From a virus (taxonomy: Duplodnaviria; Heunggongvirae; Uroviricota; Caudoviricetes), in the IMG/VR virus record IMGVR_UViG_2695420521_000002, positions 35,400-99,399 of that record: a stretch of DNA of 64,000 nucleotides; one strand, written 5' to 3'. The notes below the pieces were generated by a model that saw only the letters and a program-made list of their open reading frames with translations, had not been told where the DNA came from and made no database searches. Position 1 is the stretch's first letter, and each line of letters begins with the position of its first letter. The translations under genes and the position numbers were made by a program. Shown here piece by piece: positions 5,081 to 49,523 of the stretch.

Positions 5081-5439
5081 TCACAGGCATAAAGCACCAG
5101 CACTTTGCAGCTTAAATAACCGGACAATAATCAAATTCCCCACTTCGGGCATCATTGATGACATGAGTGATCACACCAAAAACAGCATTACTGCCCGTAC
5201 ATCCTAGTGTTGACGTGGATACATCCACTATCTTTGGCTATCCGCTGCCCACATGAAGTAGCTCACTGATGGATATCGAAGTAACCTTGCTGAAAATTAC
5301 CGCTAGTTATTCATACTCCGCCATTCCTCCTATGCTTCCATACACCGAGTTCATGTGTTTTTAATCGACAGTAACCATCTGAAACATAGATAAGAGAATC
5401 TAAAACGAAGGTCTACTCTATGCTAAATAGAAAGGGAGG

Positions 5440-5510: not shown

Positions 5511-8500
5511 TTATTCCGCTTCCTTATCATTCGCCTCTACAGCATTAATGGTTATTGTTACCGGTTCCATTTCGTATCCTCCATAGTTTAGAGAGTTGAA
5601 TGTTAATGTATATTTTCCTGGCTTAGTGGTGCTAAATTTGCGTGTAATTTTACCGTTTACAAAATGGTCGGATTTAGAAGGCAGGAATTCATAATCCTCT
5701 TCTTTCACATTGTCAGGTGCCTGAATCTCAACCCACATAGTGCCCCCGACAGGATTATTTTCCGCCATAAGAGTAATCTCCAACGTTGCGGTTGTTGTCC
5801 CATCCGCCACCAGAGATGTAACATCAGACGATGCGGCAAGCACTGCGTTTTTGTAATCCACAACGAATCTGGACTCAGCTGTTTTAGTCGATGTTTGACC
5901 ATTAGTCTGCTTAACTGTAGCCGTCACTGTATACGTCGCAGCCGTTGTTGTTGTAGCAGTGAAAACAGCCAGCCCTTGCTCATCTGTTGTAGCCCCCCCG
6001 TCAGGTGACAGAGTTAATTCTCCCGGACTGGTACTAGCACTGGCACTCAACGTAACCTCACTCCCTTTCAGGAGGTTGTTATTAGCATCAGTTACCGTAA
6101 TCTTGTATGTTTGTTTATCTTTACCATTTGCCAGAGCATTGTTATTAATCACCTCTATGCTAGAAATGGTTGCTGTAGCTTTGTCAGCCACAAACGTAAT
6201 CGTCTTGGTATCTGAAGGCTGCTCATTTTCTGTTGATGCCGTGACCTCATACGATCCAGCAATCACGGAAACTACTTGTAGTTCCGCTTTACCCTCATCG
6301 TTGGTCCTCACCCAAATGTGTTTCCCAGTAATAGGTCTGACCCCCTTTGGTAGATTAAACGTCACCAACTCTCCAGGAACTGCATTGCTATTTTTATCCT
6401 TAACAATAGCCGTCAGCGTAAAGGCATCACTGCCATTTGCTGCTCTTTGAGAGCTATCGTCAACCTGAAGGCTTACCTGCCCAGAACTGGCATCCGCACT
6501 GAACGTCACCGTAACCGTCTTCTGAGCACCATTCACCGAAGCAGTAATATTGTGTTCCCCAGCAACCGTTGACATCAACTCAATATCAGCTTTACCCGCC
6601 GCATTAGTTGTTACCGTATTCCCTGTCTTGCTGGTCACACCCTGCGGTAAAGTCAGCGTGACATTTTGCCCCTGTAACGGGTTGCCATAGGTATCCACGA
6701 CGGTCAGAGTTATCTGGTTAGCAGACTGTCCATTAGCCAGTTGGTTGTTAACCTTCACTGTCATATCACTGATTACTGCCTGAGATGTGTCACCTGCAAC
6801 ATTCAGCACCAGAGGCTGGGCAACGGCATTTTGGCCGTTCACTCGCGGCATCACGATTAATTCACCCGCCGTAGTACCCAGAGAAATCTGCGCAGTCCAT
6901 GTTCCATCGCCATTATCTGTCCAATCTGATACCGACGACCCCGTAGAGGCTGCGCCCGATAATGACGGCGCTTCCGGGGTGATACCTGTTACTGGGTTGT
7001 CATTGGCATCTTTTGCTGACCAGATTGCCGTAAGCGTACCGCCAACCACAGGTTTATCCGAGGTCAGAGTGATAGTTGAGTGTTTGGCATCAATCGGCCC
7101 GGCAACAAACTTCAGCGTTTGTTGCAACAAGCCCAACTGATACTGCTCACTAAAGACACGCACAACAACATCTCCGGCACTGGTCGAAGAAACCGTGGCG
7201 CTGTAAATCCCAGGTTTTATCTCCGAAATAGTGCCAACGGTAACTCCGTTGTTGTCCTGCGGAACAAAGCGCAGACGGCTGGCTTCTCCCGTCACAGCGT
7301 TGCCATCGGTATCTACCGCTGTAAGCGTCAGCGTGTAGGATTGCTGACCATCAGCAGTCACATCATCTGAAAGCTCACTCACACTCAGAGTGGACTTTGT
7401 CACATCCATCATTGTGGCACGCAAATCGGCAGTAACGGTTTTGCTCATACCATCAATGCTCACAGTAATGGTTGCTTCACCTGATTGCGTACCAGTAGTG
7501 AAGACTGACTGATACACCCCTGCTTCAGTTTCGGTGAACTCACCTAATGTTGGCTGTGTCTGTGATTTAGCAGACCTAAGAGCCCGCGTTACAATGTTTC
7601 CGGCAGGTTTAAACGTCAGCTCAGTCTTGATCTGATCTTTCATACCCGTGATTGGTTGTCCCTCGGCATCGCGGAGAGACAGCGCCAGCGTTTTTTGCGA
7701 GCTACCATTAGCAAGCATCTGGATACTGTCCTGTCCGTCAAGCGTTAGCGCAGAACGATCGGCACTCATACTCGCACCGGTAATGACCACCTGTGTCTTT
7801 ACACGCTTCGAGGCATTGCCTTTGTTATCATATGCTACCGCAGAGATCGCGTAATAATTGTCTTTGCCTGCCTGATAAGCCGGGAGCGTCACTTGCCACT
7901 GGTTGCCCTGCCCGGTAATTTTACCGCCCGCAGCCAGCAAAGACGGCGCCTCCCACTGCACATTTTTTAGACCGTGGGTTGCTTTACTGACCACAAGCCC
8001 CAGGGATACCGTCTGCCCGCTCTTACCTTCAATACGCTCAGGCAGAGCAATACGGATCACTTCAGATTTGCGGTATTCAAGAACGATGTTGTTATTACGC
8101 TCAACCAGGTCATAGCGGCTGCCTGTCAGCACACGGCGCTCGCGAATGCTATCCGTATCGAGTTGTTTTTCCAGAGGTTCGCCAATCCGGTAGTTAATTT
8201 CCAGGCCCAAACGGGTGTCATTCTGACCGCTCTTGCCCTGCTTATGCTCTGCGCTCAGGGTCAGAAGAGGTACAGGCGTGTAGTTCACCCCAGCTGAAAT
8301 AGCATGTGGGTTTTTCTGGCGTTTATCTTTACCAAACAGTCCTACCTCATCGCCGTAATACTGTTCATACATCAGGCTTGCGCCAAGCTGTGGCCAGGCC
8401 GGTAAATAGCCCTCAGCACGGATATCCCAGCCATTCGCCGGACGTTCCTGATAATCCTCAACATCCGGCGATTTTTTCCAGCCAGAAGCCCGGATATAAC

Positions 8501-9146
8501 CATTGGCGCTCAGTTTAAGATAATCACGCCAGTATTCCGTACCAATACCAATGCGGGTATGACTACGGGATAAATCATGGTCAATGAAGGTATTCACCCC
8601 CGCCATCCAGTCATTACCTGAGAAATGGCGCCAGCCGAAACCAATATTTGACTGAGTGCGATCGTCAGTGCGATGTATTGCCCCCTGAGTGAACAGCATA
8701 TTTGTCGGCGTGTCATATATCGGATAAAGCATTTCCAGCGAAGAATCCTTCAGCGAGAAATCTTTATCGGCATTCAGTTTGACGCGCGCGGTGCCATATT
8801 TCCCGAGCCACTCCTGGATTTCCTGGGTGGCCTTAGCAGTAGCCATTCCGGTAACAAAGTTGCGAGTCGCATCGCTATCCGGCTGACTGCTTAAAAATTT
8901 ACCGGCATTCGCGGCAACCGACGCGATATTTTTTTCTGCATTATTGTCAGTAGCAACCGCAGTATTTTCCGTAGTTAGACGTGGCAAAGTCGCATTATGC
9001 GCCCGCGCTGCCATTGTCGGTGTAAAAGTGACAGCCAATGGAAAAAGAACCTGAACAGAGATGTTTGCCCATGCCACACATCTAGCCAAGGCGGAATAGC
9101 GGAAACGTTGTTGTTTATAAGTTTTATTTAAACGTAACATTGACAT
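5511..9146 (-). CDS. inverse-autotransporter adhesin, invasin/intimin family, with many tandem bacterial Ig-like domains
   Basis: 1211-aa ORF; N-terminal hydrophobic leader, Trp/Tyr-rich beta-barrel-like region (GFGWRHF, GYIRASGW), then long Thr/Val/Ser-rich repeats typical of Big domains. Confidence 0.75.
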   Translation of the reverse strand: MSMLRLNKTYKQQRFRYSALARCVAWANISVQVLFPLAVTFTPTMAARAHNATLPRLTTENTAVATDNNAEKNIASVAANAGKFLSSQPDSDATRNFVTGMATAKATQEIQEWLGKYGTARVKLNADKDFSLKDSSLEMLYPIYDTPTNMLFTQGAIHRTDDRTQSNIGFGWRHFSGNDWMAGVNTFIDHDLSRSHTRIGIGTEYWRDYLKLSANGYIRASGWKKSPDVEDYQERPANGWDIRAEGYLPAWPQLGASLMYEQYYGDEVGLFGKDKRQKNPHAISAGVNYTPVPLLTLSAEHKQGKSGQNDTRLGLEINYRIGEPLEKQLDTDSIRERRVLTGSRYDLVERNNNIVLEYRKSEVIRIALPERIEGKSGQTVSLGLVVSKATHGLKNVQWEAPSLLAAGGKITGQGNQWQVTLPAYQAGKDNYYAISAVAYDNKGNASKRVKTQVVITGASMSADRSALTLDGQDSIQMLANGSSQKTLALSLRDAEGQPITGMKDQIKTELTFKPAGNIVTRALRSAKSQTQPTLGEFTETEAGVYQSVFTTGTQSGEATITVSIDGMSKTVTADLRATMMDVTKSTLSVSELSDDVTADGQQSYTLTLTAVDTDGNAVTGEASRLRFVPQDNNGVTVGTISEIKPGIYSATVSSTSAGDVVVRVFSEQYQLGLLQQTLKFVAGPIDAKHSTITLTSDKPVVGGTLTAIWSAKDANDNPVTGITPEAPSLSGAASTGSSVSDWTDNGDGTWTAQISLGTTAGELIVMPRVNGQNAVAQPLVLNVAGDTSQAVISDMTVKVNNQLANGQSANQITLTVVDTYGNPLQGQNVTLTLPQGVTSKTGNTVTTNAAGKADIELMSTVAGEHNITASVNGAQKTVTVTFSADASSGQVSLQVDDSSQRAANGSDAFTLTAIVKDKNSNAVPGELVTFNLPKGVRPITGKHIWVRTNDEGKAELQVVSVIAGSYEVTASTENEQPSDTKTITFVADKATATISSIEVINNNALANGKDKQTYKITVTDANNNLLKGSEVTLSASASTSPGELTLSPDGGATTDEQGLAVFTATTTTAATYTVTATVKQTNGQTSTKTAESRFVVDYKNAVLAASSDVTSLVADGTTTATLEITLMAENNPVGGTMWVEIQAPDNVKEEDYEFLPSKSDHFVNGKITRKFSTTKPGKYTLTFNSLNYGGYEMEPVTITINAVEANDKEAE

Positions 9147-43957: not shown

Positions 43958-44473
43958 TTAAAATCGGTAACCGACACCAAGCATCCAAATGCTATTGCTT
44001 AGATCACCTGGTTTAGAACGTTCATACGAGAGATCAACTGCAAACTGCGGAGCTGGGTTAAATTGAAGCCCAAGTCCATAAGCAAAATCGGTTCCAAAGC
44101 CAGCATATGACTGTCCATTCAGTTTTGCTGTTGCATCCGCATGGCTTAAACCCACCAAACCGTATGCACTCAGCAATTCATTGAATCTGTATGATGGACC
44201 AAAAGTAAATGAGGCATACTCAACCTTGGCTTTGGCGGCATTCCATAGGTTTGTGTTTGACTTTTCGTAAGTGAGCGAAGCTAATCCACCCCACGTAGGA
44301 TCCATTTCGTAGCGATATTTAATATTCACGCCTTTTGGATCTTTTATATCTCCGCCTTTAATCGTTGCGCTTCCTTGGGCAAAGTCTAAAGAAAGAGTGT
44401 GCTGATATGCGGAGGCAGTCCCAGCAACCCCTAGGGCAACAGCCAGAAGGGTCGTTAAAACTACTTTTTTCAT
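43958..44473 (-). CDS. Ail/Lom/OmpX/PagC-family outer-membrane beta-barrel protein
   Basis: 171 aa; signal peptide; NIKYRYE, GPSYRFNE, YGLGLQFNP, DLSYERS, C-terminal GVGYRF closely parallel E. coli OmpX. Confidence 0.8.
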   Translation of the reverse strand: MKKVVLTTLLAVALGVAGTASAYQHTLSLDFAQGSATIKGGDIKDPKGVNIKYRYEMDPTWGGLASLTYEKSNTNLWNAAKAKVEYASFTFGPSYRFNELLSAYGLVGLSHADATAKLNGQSYAGFGTDFAYGLGLQFNPAPQFAVDLSYERSKPGDLSNSIWMLGVGYRF

Positions 44474-44555: not shown

Positions 44556-45398
44556 TCATCCGCGAAAACCTGTAGGAATATAAAATTCCTTTTCTTTTCG
44601 TGTAGATAGGACCATATTCAGAGCTTCGTTTACCGTCATGCAGTGAGGCAGATTATCGAAGTTTGATACTCCACCAACTTCAGGTGAACGCTTGTTCTTC
44701 AGGTAAGCATATTTCCGCGCTGCCGCCTCTACTTTCTGCTTGAACTCATGTTTTTGAGAGCGTTTTTTGGATAACCGCAGATTGTCAGCCTTTGCTTTTG
44801 CCTTAGCGATCCATGAAGTCAATTTTTTGAGGCTGGTCGTTCCGGCACCGCCGGAAACTGATCTTTTTGTTTTTTTAACTTGTGACTTCTTATTCTTTAT
44901 TGCCACGTCATCCTGACAGGGGGAGGGGGTATCATTTTGACATGGGGGTGTGGATAAAAAATCAAATAAAGCCAATGCCTTAGCGAGAACAGCTTTAACC
45001 TTGGTTGCGGCTGAAGAGATCTTTAATTTGCTTTCAATTAGCGCATTTTTGGCTTGTTGTGCGAAGGCCAAAAAGGATGGGGTAAACCGGTACAGGTTAG
45101 CGCGACGTTCACGGTGATCGCCGATAACAATCTCTACTGACAGGATTCCTTTGTTTACAGCTTCACGGAATGCACGAACGACGGTTGATTGGCTATAACC
45201 AGTTTCTGCCGCGATCAGGCGGTGAGGCTTGTGAATGAAGTATTCACTGGTTGTTGCCGCGAGATTTGCACATTGCGACAGGATATGCCCGGCGCTACGG
45301 GATAGACCGGAGTGTGTTACAAAGCAGGCCAATTCATAGCCAGAAAAAGTAAAATCGCTCATCGTTATACAGCTCAGGAAAGTGACTTTAGCCAGCAT
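44556..45398 (-). CDS. repL: lytic replication initiator RepL-like protein
   Basis: 280-aa ORF immediately downstream of kilA under the same operator; size and position as in P1. Confidence 0.65.
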   Translation of the reverse strand: MLAKVTFLSCITMSDFTFSGYELACFVTHSGLSRSAGHILSQCANLAATTSEYFIHKPHRLIAAETGYSQSTVVRAFREAVNKGILSVEIVIGDHRERRANLYRFTPSFLAFAQQAKNALIESKLKISSAATKVKAVLAKALALFDFLSTPPCQNDTPSPCQDDVAIKNKKSQVKKTKRSVSGGAGTTSLKKLTSWIAKAKAKADNLRLSKKRSQKHEFKQKVEAAARKYAYLKNKRSPEVGGVSNFDNLPHCMTVNEALNMVLSTRKEKEFYIPTGFRG

Positions 45399-45427: not shown

Positions 45428-46228
45428 TTAGCGCGTTGCCGCGACAGGTACCAGCACACCAGCATCAAGCAATCGCTTCATCAGCCACTGCTGACCTTTG
45501 CCGGTTATACGAGTCGTGAAAGAAATCCTGCTTCCATTGCTTGTATCGATCACGGTTTCTTTAAGGGTGAAATACCCACGGGATATGTATTCTTGTTTGG
45601 GGACGTTCCTGCGTTCACCGGTTGCGATCAGAATTCCGTTATCACGCAACCAGGTGAAGAGATAGTTTTGGCCCAGGCCGAGCACTTTGGCATAGTTGCC
45701 GATTAGAACCCCGCTGGCGGTAGCAACGCGTTCGGCGAATTCGACTTTAGGTGCATCCATAAGCATTTTTTGCTCCAGCCGTTGCTTTTGCTCTGCCAGG
45801 TCGGCAGCCAAACGGAGAGCTTCAGGGAGACTCTGCGGAATAGCTGGTTGTAATCTTCCGGCTCGATAGTCGATAAATGTCTGGTTTACCTTCAGCCGAA
45901 ACGCGGGAGAAATCCAGCCTGCGTACTCCACAGCGAGCAATTCATGGGCAAAAGTGCCGCCGCCACGGCCTTCGAACGAAACTATGCAATTCTGCATAGT
46001 TTCTTTTTCAAGCTCTTCGATGAGCTGTTTGGCTGACAGCGTTCTTAGCCATTGAGCTGGCGCTTTATGGGTACCGAGTCCGCTTGCTCTGTGTAGAGCA
46101 TTAAGGTTGTAACGGCCAGCGCGGTCGGTCGTAATTTCAACACCACAAATAACAGGCAGAGTGGTTGAAGGATCGACATTTTGATGAAGGTTTGATATAT
46201 TCATATCTGCATTGAGTGTTTGTTGCAT
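45428..46228 (-). CDS. kilA: KilA protein (KilA-N domain plus antirepressor-type C-terminal domain)
   Basis: 266-aa ORF; C-terminal half homologous to C-terminal part of adjacent ant. Confidence 0.75.
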   Translation of the reverse strand: MQQTLNADMNISNLHQNVDPSTTLPVICGVEITTDRAGRYNLNALHRASGLGTHKAPAQWLRTLSAKQLIEELEKETMQNCIVSFEGRGGGTFAHELLAVEYAGWISPAFRLKVNQTFIDYRAGRLQPAIPQSLPEALRLAADLAEQKQRLEQKMLMDAPKVEFAERVATASGVLIGNYAKVLGLGQNYLFTWLRDNGILIATGERRNVPKQEYISRGYFTLKETVIDTSNGSRISFTTRITGKGQQWLMKRLLDAGVLVPVAATR

Positions 46229-46297: not shown

Positions 46298-46315
46298 AAA
46301 TTTATTAGAGCAAAT
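46298..46315 (-). promoter_or_regulatory. C1 operator-like site upstream of kilA-repL (Op53-like)
   Basis: Plus strand AAATTTATTAGAGCAAAT. Confidence 0.65.
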
Positions 46316-46392
46316 TTTTCTAGCTCGATCCAGATCGGGTTGGTCGATCTGCTCAGAAACCTGCCAGTTTGCTGGCAGGTTTTTTTCTTTTG

Positions 46393-47427
46393 TTAACCTA
46401 TTGCTACTGGTTTTAACAAACCAGCATCAAGTAGCTTGCGAGTTAACCACTGCTGGCCTTTACCCGTTAATTGGGGCGTCAGCCGTATCTGATAGCCATT
46501 TTCATCATCCAGCACCACTTCTTTCACCGTGAAATACCCGGCGTTAATGTACTGCTGGCGCGGTACGTTTTTGCGCGCACCAAAAGCCATGAGAATGCCG
46601 TTCTGGCGCAACCATGAGAAAAGGGCGTTTTGCTTAAGTCCAACGACCTTTGCAAAGTTCCCGATCAGGATTCCATTAGCCACTGATACCCGGTCGGCAA
46701 AATCGACTTTAGGGGCAGCGGCCACCAGCTGTTGTTCCAGCTGCATTTTCTGTTCTGCCAACTCGGCAGCCAGGCGTAGAGCTTCTGGTAATGTTTGGGG
46801 GATCTATGGGGTAGGGGAGTTTGCCTGCTGCAATTCTTCCAGTTTGTCGATCAGCGAACGGCGGACCGCTTTTGACTCGCGCGCGGCAACTCGCAGAGCT
46901 TGTTTGTAGGTCATGGTTATAATATCTATTTCTGCGCCGTTTTTTTGACCTACGAAAATTTCGTAGGTTTCTCCTTCAAGCTCATCCTTAACTCTGGCAA
47001 TGAAATCATTGTTGCGAACTGGTTTTTCGCTACATAATTTCCGTGCCTCATTGACCATCTTCAACAATGTTTGGCTGTCGATTGTGTCTCCGGTGTTGGG
47101 GATGACATTCAGGGCTGGTGCTGGCGTAGCTGAAGCAACAGGTGCTGGTTTTTCAACATTTAAATTATTACCGGTCATTCTATGTGCCTCCTTTCTCATT
47201 TCTGCTGCCACTGTTGCGTAACGTAGACGTCCTTGTTCAATCAAATAATCCCTGATCTCGGCTATCAGTAGCCTGTTGATCACAGCCTTATCTGTTCGGG
47301 TATAAAAACGTCTGGTTATCATGAAATAGTTGGCAATTGCGCCGGGGATCTCCCGTGTCGGCATACAGGTTGTATGCAAAGCGATCGCTTCGGCTATTTC
47401 ATTACGGGTGACGAGAGGTGTTTTCAT
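46393..47427 (-). pseudogene. ant: antirepressor gene ant interrupted by a single in-frame TAG (amber) codon at 46804-46806
   Basis: ORFs 46804-47427 (207 aa) and 46393-46761 share one frame; homology to KilA C-terminal domain continues across the stop (...ANSPTP*IPQTLPEALRLAAELAEQK...). Confidence 0.65.
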
Positions 47428-47645
47428 AAACCCCCCTGAACGTTGGCAGAGAAGGGGAGGCTCCAGTAACTAAGTGAATTGCGCGAGTTAGTTGAAAAAC
47501 GGGCAGTAAAAATGCAGGGGCCATCAGGCAATTGAGAGCGTGCTTCGTCTTCTGTTGCTGCGATAACGAAGTGATAGTGGTGTTTTTTACAGGAATAGAA
47601 ACGCCAGATGAATTCTTGGCGTGCGCAAGGATTGGCATTAACCAT
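47424..47645 (-). CDS. icd: Icd (interference with cell division), translationally coupled to ant
   Basis: 73-aa ORF; stop TGA overlaps ant start ATG (ATGA); SD GAGG overlaps predicted c4 target. Confidence 0.7.
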   Translation of the reverse strand: MVNANPCARQEFIWRFYSCKKHHYHFVIAATEDEARSQLPDGPCIFTARFSTNSRNSLSYWSLPFSANVQGGL

Positions 47646-47699
47646 AGTTACGGCCTCACAATCAGGTTTAACAACCTGCTACCCGCTGCTAAACAGGTG

Positions 47700-47780
47700 G
47701 CAGGACGTGACGGGGTTAGCAGACTGGCGATTGTGAAACCAGCAGGCCGAAGCCTCCCCATCACGCCCCACCATAATTTG
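47700..47780 (-). ncRNA. c4: c4 antisense repressor RNA (approximate bounds)
   Basis: Transcript segment carrying CACAATC and CTGCTAACC, complementary to upstream GGTTTAGCAG/GATTGTG and to downstream TGTTTAGCAG/GATTGTGAGG at the icd SD. Confidence 0.5.
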
Positions 47781-47958
47781 GGCGTAACGCGGTTTTATGG
47801 ACACAAAAATACCGCAATATCGGATATCTGCGGCTGTCCGCACAATCATTCAGGCTGCTAAACCCGGTCGCAGAATTTGCTACGACGGCGGAACTATAAG
47901 CCTGAACGATTAAAAGGTCAATATGATGCGAAAAGATAGCATTCGCGACTTAAAAATA

Positions 47959-47975
47959 CAAATTTATTAGAGCAT
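47959..47975 (-). promoter_or_regulatory. C1 operator-like site (16/17) at immI promoter (Op51-like)
   Basis: Plus strand AAATTTATTAGAGCATT. Confidence 0.65.
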
Positions 47976-48072
47976 TAATTGTATAATAAATACATAAATG
48001 GATCTAATAACCTCTTTTTTTTAAAGGCGAAAATATGTACCCTAAATGGGTTATAAGGCAGGTGAGGTTATA

Positions 48073-48711
48073 ATGAGAAAACTATTACTACCGTTATTAT
48101 TTATGGCTGGGACTGTTAATGCAGCATCAAGTGTAAAGGAGATTTGTACCGACTACACGAAATACCTTGGGCACGTTTACGGTTTCACTGTCAGTCAAGA
48201 CGGCAAGATGAAAAAAGCTCTCCAGAATGATATGACGCGCTTAAGTTTGTCTGAAGCAATGGTTCAGCAAGAAATATATAAGGTTGCGACAGATGATGCT
48301 GCAAAAATGTATTATTCGAAATTTCTTAATCCTAATCTTAATGAATATAACCGTTCGGCTTTTAATCAGATGGTAGCGTATTGTGAAACTGCACCAGATA
48401 TGATGATTCCTAGTTGGGCTGTATTAGTGGCTAATGGAAAAATTCGCAAAGAAGACCAAGGAAAATCTTTAAGTAGCTATATAAATAGCGAACAATTTCT
48501 GAATGCGCGTGGCATGCGCACTCAAAATACTCAAGGTGCGCTTGAGCGGAGGGCTTTAGGGAGTGCTGATGCAAATGATACTGATAATTTGACCCCAGGA
48601 ATAAAAAAATGTGTTGAAACTAAGTTAGCTCTAATGAAACGGGACAGCCCTAACATTCCTGTTTCACAACTTACCGCTACGGCAACTAGTCTCTGCAAAG
48701 ACGGGCTTTAA
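48073..48711 (+). CDS. secreted/periplasmic hypothetical protein (candidate superinfection-exclusion Sim-like factor)
   Basis: About 212 aa from ATG 48073; signal peptide MRKLLLPLLFMAGTVNA; AT-rich gene next to immI. Confidence 0.45.
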   Translation: MRKLLLPLLFMAGTVNAASSVKEICTDYTKYLGHVYGFTVSQDGKMKKALQNDMTRLSLSEAMVQQEIYKVATDDAAKMYYSKFLNPNLNEYNRSAFNQMVAYCETAPDMMIPSWAVLVANGKIRKEDQGKSLSSYINSEQFLNARGMRTQNTQGALERRALGSADANDTDNLTPGIKKCVETKLALMKRDSPNIPVSQLTATATSLCKDGL

Positions 48712-48740
48712 ATGTAAAGATATTCGAAGGATAGTGATAA

Positions 48741-49523
48741 GTGAAAAAATTAATGTTTAAACTATTGTTGCCGTTTGCTTTTGTTAGCAGCTATTCATTT
48801 GCAAATTCAATAGCTATTCCTAATGAGTATTCTGTTTCCGAGAAGGACTATAATTTAGTCAGAAACTATATGGTATCTGCTTCGCTTGCATATACTATGA
48901 ATACGAAAGCTACTGTTTTTAGCTTGCCATCAGATATTGTTGATTCATTCAAGAAAAATGAAATAGCAGCCTTAGATGAATGGAGTCAAACTTCTAGAAT
49001 TTGGGGTAAGATCGAAAGAATAACATTGTCTAATGGGTATCCTGTTATTGAGCTTGTAAGCCCAGGACAAGCAAAATCGTCTTTGAACTATATAAGATTA
49101 GAAGATACGACTGGCAACAGTCACATAGTAAAAGAACTAACAAAAGAACAAGAAATTTATTCATTATGTTCTGGTGTTAAATTTAGACAAATTCCCACAT
49201 TTCAGTATTGCTCATTCTATCTTAATCCTATTGAAGCAAATCTGGAATATGTTGGTAACTATTTCATTCCTCAATATAAAGATAATTTAATAAAGACAGT
49301 AGCCGAGAATAGAACGCTACCGATTGGCGCGTTGACAACAAGATTTATCGGGTACATTATGCTTGTTGGTATTTCTAAAAATAAAAACGATATGGAAAAA
49401 ATAAATTCGTGCACTCCATGGAAGAAAGAATGCAAATCGTATTATGAGTCAATAATAGTAAATGCAACAAAATACTATGCCGATAATGCGAAAGGCTTGG
49501 CTGATTATCTTGAAAAGCTTTAA
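48741..49523 (+). CDS. secreted/periplasmic hypothetical protein (candidate Sim-like factor)
   Basis: 260 aa; signal peptide MKKLMFKLLLPFAFVSSYSFA; AT-rich. Confidence 0.45.
   Translation: MKKLMFKLLLPFAFVSSYSFANSIAIPNEYSVSEKDYNLVRNYMVSASLAYTMNTKATVFSLPSDIVDSFKKNEIAALDEWSQTSRIWGKIERITLSNGYPVIELVSPGQAKSSLNYIRLEDTTGNSHIVKELTKEQEIYSLCSGVKFRQIPTFQYCSFYLNPIEANLEYVGNYFIPQYKDNLIKTVAENRTLPIGALTTRFIGYIMLVGISKNKNDMEKINSCTPWKKECKSYYESIIVNATKYYADNAKGLADYLEKL

Follow-up and report, generated by a model that had tools for sequence, protein, structure and literature searches.

An in-frame amber codon in the immI antirepressor gene of a P1/P7-like phage-plasmid from Escherichia coli

In P1, the C1 repressor is inactivated by a complex of Ant1 and Ant2, and synthesis of Ant is blocked by the C4 RNA (PMC8546580). 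Both ant1 and ant2 of P1 scored as non-essential for growth in a genome-wide CRISPRi study (PMC10695390), and ImmI was listed by Venturini et al. among the hot spots of change of P1-like plasmids (PMC6906374). Ant1 has 347 aa in P1, 348 aa in P7, and 344 aa in RCS47, phi456, and p1303_95.

The window (the whole stretch of DNA analyzed, 64,000 nucleotides) was found to contain, in this order, a C1 operator, c4 RNA, icd, ant1/ant2, a terminator, kilA, and repL (Table 1). A region of 1.4 kb was 93–98% identical to immI of P1, P7, RCS47, and phi456, and up to 98.7% identical to plasmids such as p1303_95. Gene order and similarity identify the locus as the immI operon of a P1/P7-like phage-plasmid carried by E. 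coli. The ant gene occupies the position of an immI antirepressor, being downstream of the c4 RNA and icd, upstream of kilA-repL, and under a C1 operator, the consensus of which was matched seven times in the window against 0.05 matches expected. The gene aligned with ant1 of its relatives over the whole 1035 nt (92.9% identity to P1, 94.6% to P7, and 98.3–98.8% to RCS47/p1303_95), without gaps in the case of the closest ones. It also has the two starts of the family, one for Ant1 and one for Ant2 at codon 84, and ant1 is coupled to icd through an ATGA overlap at 47427–47424. The mature C4 RNA and its a1/b1 and a2/b2 targets were identical to those of P7 and RCS47; therefore, the immI specificity is P7-type. 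Two changes private to this operon were also noted. One is D68N in icd, a GAC-to-AAC change lying 15 nt ahead of the ant1 start codon, and the other is a G-to-A change about 24 nt upstream of the 5′ end of mature C4 (about 47800). Both lie outside the known C4 interaction sites.

Table 1. Features of the immI operon and of the neighboring kilA-repL genes, with positions in the window.
Feature	Position	Strand	Evidence
C1 operator upstream of the c4 promoter (Op51/Oc4 equivalent)	47960–47976	-	Consensus ATTGCTCTAATAAATTT, 1 mismatch; place corresponds to Oc4 in the P1 annotation
Sigma-70 promoter of immI (P1c4/P51b equivalent)	47893–47921	-	TTGACC-17-TATAGT, 10/12 matches; aligns with the annotated P1c4 of P1
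a1/b1 target sites for C4 RNA	47847–47899	-	Rfam RF03163 c4-a1b1, 55.5 bits, above the gathering score of 46.7
C4 antisense RNA gene, P7-type specificity, intact	47693–47778	-	Rfam RF01695, 69.6 bits against a gathering score of 45
icd (73 aa), overlaps the ant1 start in ATGA	47424–47645	-	ORF; 98.6% identical to Icd of p1303_95
ant1 N-terminal ORF, 207 sense codons and TAG	46804–47427	-	ORF listing; exact 207-aa product deposited as CUA15843.1 'putative antirepressor [Escherichia coli]'
ant2 in-frame start, codon 84 of ant1	47176–47178	-	AAGGAGG 8 nt before ATG; same place as the annotated ant2 of P1, P7, and RCS47 (nt 250 of ant1)
Amber TAG in place of TCG (Ser208); altered base 46805	46804–46806	-	DNA alignment; private to the window sequence
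Untranslated ant remnant: C-terminal KilAC module, codons 209–344 and TAA	46393–46803	-	Pfam PF03374
Hairpin terminator after ant	46355–46384	.	13-bp stem with T-run; on the minus strand, TTTCT after the stem
C1 operator of the kilA-repL promoter (Op53/OrepL equivalent)	46298–46314	-	1 mismatch to the consensus; place matches the P1 annotation
kilA (266 aa, KilA-N and KilAC), intact paralogue of the ant C-terminal module	45428–46228	-	Pfam; 98.9% identical to KilA of p1303_95
repL (280 aa), intact	44556–45398	-	ORF; Pfam Phage_P1_RepL

When the ORFs were listed and translated, the one starting at ATG 47427 was found to end on the minus strand after 207 codons, at a TAG (46806–46804). Past this codon, the same frame continues for 136 sense codons (46803–46396) up to a TAA at 46395–46393. 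Reading through the TAG would thus give a product of 344 aa, which equals the Ant1 length of RCS47, phi456, and p1303_95. In the DNA alignment, codon 208 is TCG (Ser) in the five relatives aligned (P1, P7, RCS47, phi456, and p1303_95) and TAG in the window, the two being related by a single C-to-A transversion. An earlier note on this DNA had reported two ORFs in one frame with a single in-frame amber between them, had read these as an antirepressor gene ant split by that codon, and had put full-length Ant at about 344 aa. Its coordinates were correct, and all of this was borne out, including by the alignment to P1/P7 ant that it had proposed; the gene can now be specified as ant1/ant2 of a P1/P7-type immI. 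The ORF listed at 46393–46761 (TTG start) is merely a mechanical ORF within the downstream remnant. Members of the ant1/ant2 family have an uninterrupted ORF of 344–348 codons, and the TAG at codon 208 breaks it here. On its sequence, the window copy is to be regarded as a nonsense allele (pseudogene) of the family and not as a functional member.

The stop falls at a domain boundary. The KilAC domain (Pfam ANT, PF03374) was detected at residues 231–333 of the read-through product (E = 1.3e-30), i.e., wholly downstream of the stop. The conserved C-terminal module as a whole begins at residue 209 (IPQTLPEAL...), directly after it. This boundary comes from the alignment with KilA and with the Ant of pIso00270_01 (363 aa, with a different N-terminus), in which codon 208 stands for the last residue of the variable N-terminal part. 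Megablast matches to ant alleles with alternative N-termini likewise start at nt 625, which is codon 209. These alignments mark codon 209 as a sharp module-exchange junction inside ant. In Ant alleles of the pIso00270_01 type (locus positions 820–1911), an entirely different middle domain, of the ORF6N type, is fused to the same KilAC at codon 209. No Pfam domain was found in the N-terminal 207 aa even at E = 10, and the whole read-through protein had no NCBIfam match.

Since KilAC is encoded past the TAG, it is absent from the predicted products, namely Ant1(1–207) and Ant2(84–207, 124 aa), both of which would be without the module 209–344. The earlier note had homology to the C-terminal domain of KilA running straight across the stop. 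This is true of the BLASTP alignment with KilA, which does cross it, but the PF03374 match and the strongly conserved block from residue 209 both lie after it. What clearly spans the stop is the orthology of ant1 to its P1/P7 counterparts (93–99% DNA identity over 1035 nt).

The distribution of the allele was examined with a 55-nt megablast query, prepared in wild-type and mutant versions and placed such that no 28-mer seed could match without covering the variable base. The wild-type (TCG) 55-mer matched 438 records, found in 435 of the 5426 complete E. coli genomes. The mutant (TAG) 55-mer had no match in the same 5426 genomes and none in PLSDB, and an exact pattern scan of the IMG/VR and JGI metagenome contigs did not find the mutant pattern. 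IMG/VR was also surveyed with a query pattern taken from the window just downstream of the stop. This retrieved 79 loci, and codon 208 was TCG in every one of them. Programmed read-through would need a stop that is conserved among relatives, and none of the 79 loci has TAG. The relatives encode a single ORF, annotated as one protein of 344–348 aa, and such ant copies as are split are broken at other positions, by frameshifts or IS elements. As TCG was universal in the loci checked and the mutant 55-mer was absent, the two-ORF state is not the natural architecture of the gene and the stop is not a conserved one. The possibility, raised in the earlier note, that wild-type ant might naturally be two genes with this same boundary is thereby excluded. 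A naturally split antirepressor, with an N-terminal gene and a KilAC gene, was accordingly rejected: the boundary does not occur between separate genes in independent relatives.

Compared with nine relatives, ant1 of the window carries only two private substitutions in 1035 nt, the amber and a synonymous change (GCC to GCT) at codon 177. No private substitution lies downstream of the stop in this comparison, and a remnant free of further private change points to a recent event. Taking these results together, it is very probable that we are dealing with a genuine, recent, and spontaneous nonsense mutation in ant1/ant2 of a P1/P7-like phage-plasmid of an E. coli isolate. What is new is only the allele; the P1/P7 ant system itself was already known.

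An exact look-up of the 207-aa product returned two contigs, the NCBI contig CYGK01000014.1 (99,399 bp; GCA_001286565.1, E. coli) and a 13-kb Logan contig of run ERR178190. Over 6.6 kb (NCBI) and 3.9 kb (Logan) they matched the window at 100% identity, and both stretches include the TAG. Because two assemblies carry the identical TAG, an assembly artifact is unlikely. The Logan contig may share the reads of the isolate, and in that case it rules out an artifact of the assembler but not a mutation that arose in laboratory culture. To judge the assembly as a whole, 77 annotated CDS of p1303_95 were mapped onto the window by tblastn. More than 50 were shared; ant1 contained the only in-frame stop among them, and no frameshift was present. 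General decay of the prophage, or an assembly of low quality, was rejected since no other shared CDS has a stop or a frameshift.

It could still be argued that the TAG arose as an error of sequencing or of the consensus, the true plasmid having TCG and an unbroken ant. The allele is shared by none of several hundred relatives, it comes from a draft assembly of a high-throughput project, and the changed base adjoins a Dam site (TCGATC), a context that troubles some sequencing platforms. We consider such an error unlikely: two independently produced assemblies (the NCBI contig and Logan ERR178190) agree on the base, the change is a substitution and not a homopolymer indel, and the other CDS shared with p1303_95 are free of stops and frameshifts, as in an otherwise clean assembly. 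Moreover, the private synonymous change in ant1 points to real private variation in this lineage. Seen in a clean assembly and recovered by a second assembler, the TAG substitution is most likely genuine.

The earlier note had expected a truncated product unless the TAG is suppressed. The predicted products do end at residue 207, and no suppressor tRNA was found in the window. The four tRNAs of the window have the anticodons CAT, TGA, TGT, and GTT, and none has CTA. The 21-kb locus, which reaches about 8.6 kb past the left end of the window, contained no tRNA at all. Together, the window and this locus account for all but about 27 kb of the plasmid. Thus, a cognate suppressor tRNA (anticodon CUA) encoded by the element is absent from the window and the 21-kb locus. 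Amber suppressors are generally rare among natural E. coli isolates.

A tRNA-like gene with a long variable arm lies at 26141–26227 (minus strand). ARAGORN called it a tRNA-Ser with anticodon UGA; in Rfam it matched only the tRNA-Sec model, at 43.5 bits, which is below the gathering score of 47. It is situated within a 188-nt segment without a megablast match in p1303_95. As a candidate amber suppressor it was rejected, its anticodon being UGA and not CUA.

An in-frame ATG (46747–46745) follows 57 nt after the stop, and gene callers take it as a start. No recognizable Shine-Dalgarno sequence lies ahead of it, and re-initiation there is possible but unsupported. This ATG enters into a different reading of the amber, in which it makes a functional two-piece or modified antirepressor: the N-terminal fragments would be active or altered (for example, dominant-negative partners of the second Ant paralogue described below, with which the first 85 residues are about 60% identical), KilAC would be re-initiated at 46747–46745, or the TAG would be read through in a suppressor host, where supD would restore Ser. 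The position of the stop speaks for this reading. It coincides exactly with the boundary that separates the variable N-terminal part from the shared C-terminal part, where other alleles have swapped their N-termini. The chance of a stop falling on this very codon, the last one ahead of the conserved module, is roughly 1 in 100 when estimated post hoc, which leaves some room for a functional split. The C-terminal remnant is without further damage, but this is equally expected of a very recent null mutation. The ATG called as a start and the N-terminal segment shared by the second paralogue also agree with a two-piece gene, but the ATG has no recognizable ribosome-binding sequence, the amber-split architecture occurs in no relative, and no suppressor tRNA is present in the window or the 21-kb locus. 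On this balance we hold a functional split to be quite unlikely. It is very unlikely, too, that stable N-terminal fragments of Ant1/Ant2, possibly together with re-initiated KilAC, modulate the heteroimmune second Ant or C1. If they did, an element with two immI modules would have a tuned switch.

We return to a plain nonsense mutation as the preferred reading. The operon upstream of the amber is intact, including the C1 operator, the promoter, C4 with its P7-type targets, the ATGA overlap with icd, and the ant2 start with its Shine-Dalgarno sequence. Once repression by C4 is relieved, translation would be expected to begin normally and to halt at codon 208, giving a 207-aa fragment of Ant1 and a 124-aa fragment of Ant2 in which the KilAC module is missing. 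By analogy with P1, the C1-inactivating Ant1/Ant2 complex would be lost or crippled, and the window copy of ant is presumably ant-null or severely crippled; some residual activity of the truncated fragments is conceivable. This immI module would then no longer drive lytic growth or bypass C1, and its C4 RNA would still act in trans. Since the C4 RNA would still be active, the plasmid should stay immune to incoming phages of its own immI type. There is no obvious target for polarity, as a terminator follows ant and kilA-repL has its own C1-controlled promoter. The loss would be tolerated given that ant is dispensable for lytic growth and plasmid maintenance, and in a plasmid-borne prophage it may perhaps even be favored. 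That immunity control would be affected had been foreseen in the earlier note. The amber does remove KilAC, but the effect is probably modest, for ant is non-essential (PMC10695390), c4 and c1 are intact, and a second intact module is present.

The amber might instead be a compensatory suppressor of a defect in C4 control, because P1 c4/virs lysogens survive only with second-site mutations in icd or ant. According to Heinrich et al. 1994, as cited in PMC8546580 and PMC10695390, the second-site virs suppressors map in icd and ant. The two additional private changes of this operon, the G-to-A change and icd D68N, would suit such a history, but they fall outside the known interaction sites. Mature C4 and the a1/b1 and a2/b2 pairs are those of P7/RCS47, C4 scores well above the Rfam threshold, and neither the promoter nor the C1 operator is damaged. 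That the amber compensates for a c4 defect is extremely improbable, and we rejected this on the identity of C4 and its targets with those of P7/RCS47.

A second complete immI-like module is present on the same contig, 0.3–1.8 kb beyond the left end of the window, between pacB and c1 (12775–14373 of the 21-kb locus). It comprises an isrK-like element, a C4 RNA (76.7 bits), an icd-like gene that is 81% identical to icd, and an ant gene. The Ant of this module is intact (371 aa); its middle domain is of the ORF6N type, and its KilAC C-terminus shares about 90% identity with that of the broken ant. The loops of its C4 and their targets are unlike both the P1 and the P7 types; hence, the plasmid has two heteroimmune immI modules, one of them with a dead ant. 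The c1 gene is intact (283 aa). This second c4-icd-ant module may cover the lost function, and the redundancy may explain why loss of the canonical ant has been tolerated. An ant between pacB and c1 has been reported for RCS47 and pTZ20_1P (PMC6906374).

Collinearity with p1303_95 extends over the whole window, from pacB across the plasmid replicon to the tail-fiber genes. Several differences in gene content were observed along it. At 5511–9146 (minus strand), a gene for a 1211-aa intimin/invasin-like adhesin (Pfam IAT_beta, Invasin_D3, and Big_1) replaces humD, hot, and about 9 kb of other genes of p1303_95; a humD remnant of 30 aa is left at 5115–5204. Just downstream of repL, a gene for a 171-aa outer-membrane protein of the Ail/Lom family (43958–44473, minus strand) is missing at the matching place of p1303_95, which has hokD. 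At the position of sim/upf50 (48046–49523, plus strand) there are two ORFs (221 and 260 aa) whose N-termini resemble signal peptides. Their counterparts in p1303_95 are partial only (65% identity over 170 aa, or no match), and this is another variable cargo slot adjoining immI. Outside the window, near ref/cre, a gene for a 435-aa protein with a SIR2_2 domain (19499–20806 of the 21-kb locus) is a candidate defense gene.

Loss of ant has occurred elsewhere by other routes. The gene is split by IS1 in several plasmids of PLSDB/RefSeq, including pHYEC7-mcr1 and p15.03CC_1; in the latter, both halves are annotated as pseudogenes. In pMCR_SCKP-LL83, ISApl1-mcr-1 is inserted in ant1, and plaque formation was not inducible (PMC5786510). 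One-base deletions lead to a stop at codon 195 in three metagenomic contigs, and the ant frame is broken elsewhere in 4 of the 65 complete IMG/VR loci. These independent breaks suggest recurrent loss of the canonical antirepressor in phage-plasmids. In P1-like phage-plasmids the immI antirepressor is often lost, and a nonsense codon now joins IS1, ISApl1-mcr-1, and frameshifts among the causes. This pattern fits either drift or selection toward a more plasmid-like, less inducible state. As a loss-of-function mutation the amber is unremarkable: the gene it hits is well known, dispensable, and often inactivated, and no new question is opened. For annotation, CUA15843.1 and CUA15841.1 ('putative antirepressor') are to be taken as the halves of one ant1/ant2 pseudogene. 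The allele could also serve as a natural ant-null, revertible by one base, with which to test the part played by Ant in the induction of a wild phage-plasmid; it would be especially apt in a plasmid with a second immI module.

In comparison with known systems, the locus resembles ant1/ant2 of P1 and P7 in position and gene order, in DNA identity over the 1.4-kb region (93.4% to P1 and 95.3% to P7), in the icd/ant1 ATGA overlap, in the internal ant2 start, and in the encoded KilAC, with C4 and targets of the P7 type. It differs from them in that codon 208 is TAG and not TCG, so that no full-length Ant1 (344 aa) or Ant2 can be made without suppression. The closest alleles are those of p1303_95 (NZ_CP009168.1), pD5 (NZ_CP010146.1), and RCS47, which are 98.3–98.9% identical over the gene and also have 344 aa. 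All three are intact, and what sets the window copy apart from each of them is the amber together with a single synonymous substitution. KilA of P1 shares the C-terminal KilAC (52% overall identity by BLASTP, much higher from residue 209). Unlike ant, it has a KilA-N N-terminal domain and its own C1-controlled promoter, and it is intact in the window. The plasmids with ant1 disrupted by IS elements are alike in that the same gene is dead in a phage-like plasmid, leaving an N-terminal stub and an orphan KilAC part. In those plasmids, however, the break is the insertion of a mobile element, whereas in the window it is a scarless and easily reverted nonsense change of a single base.
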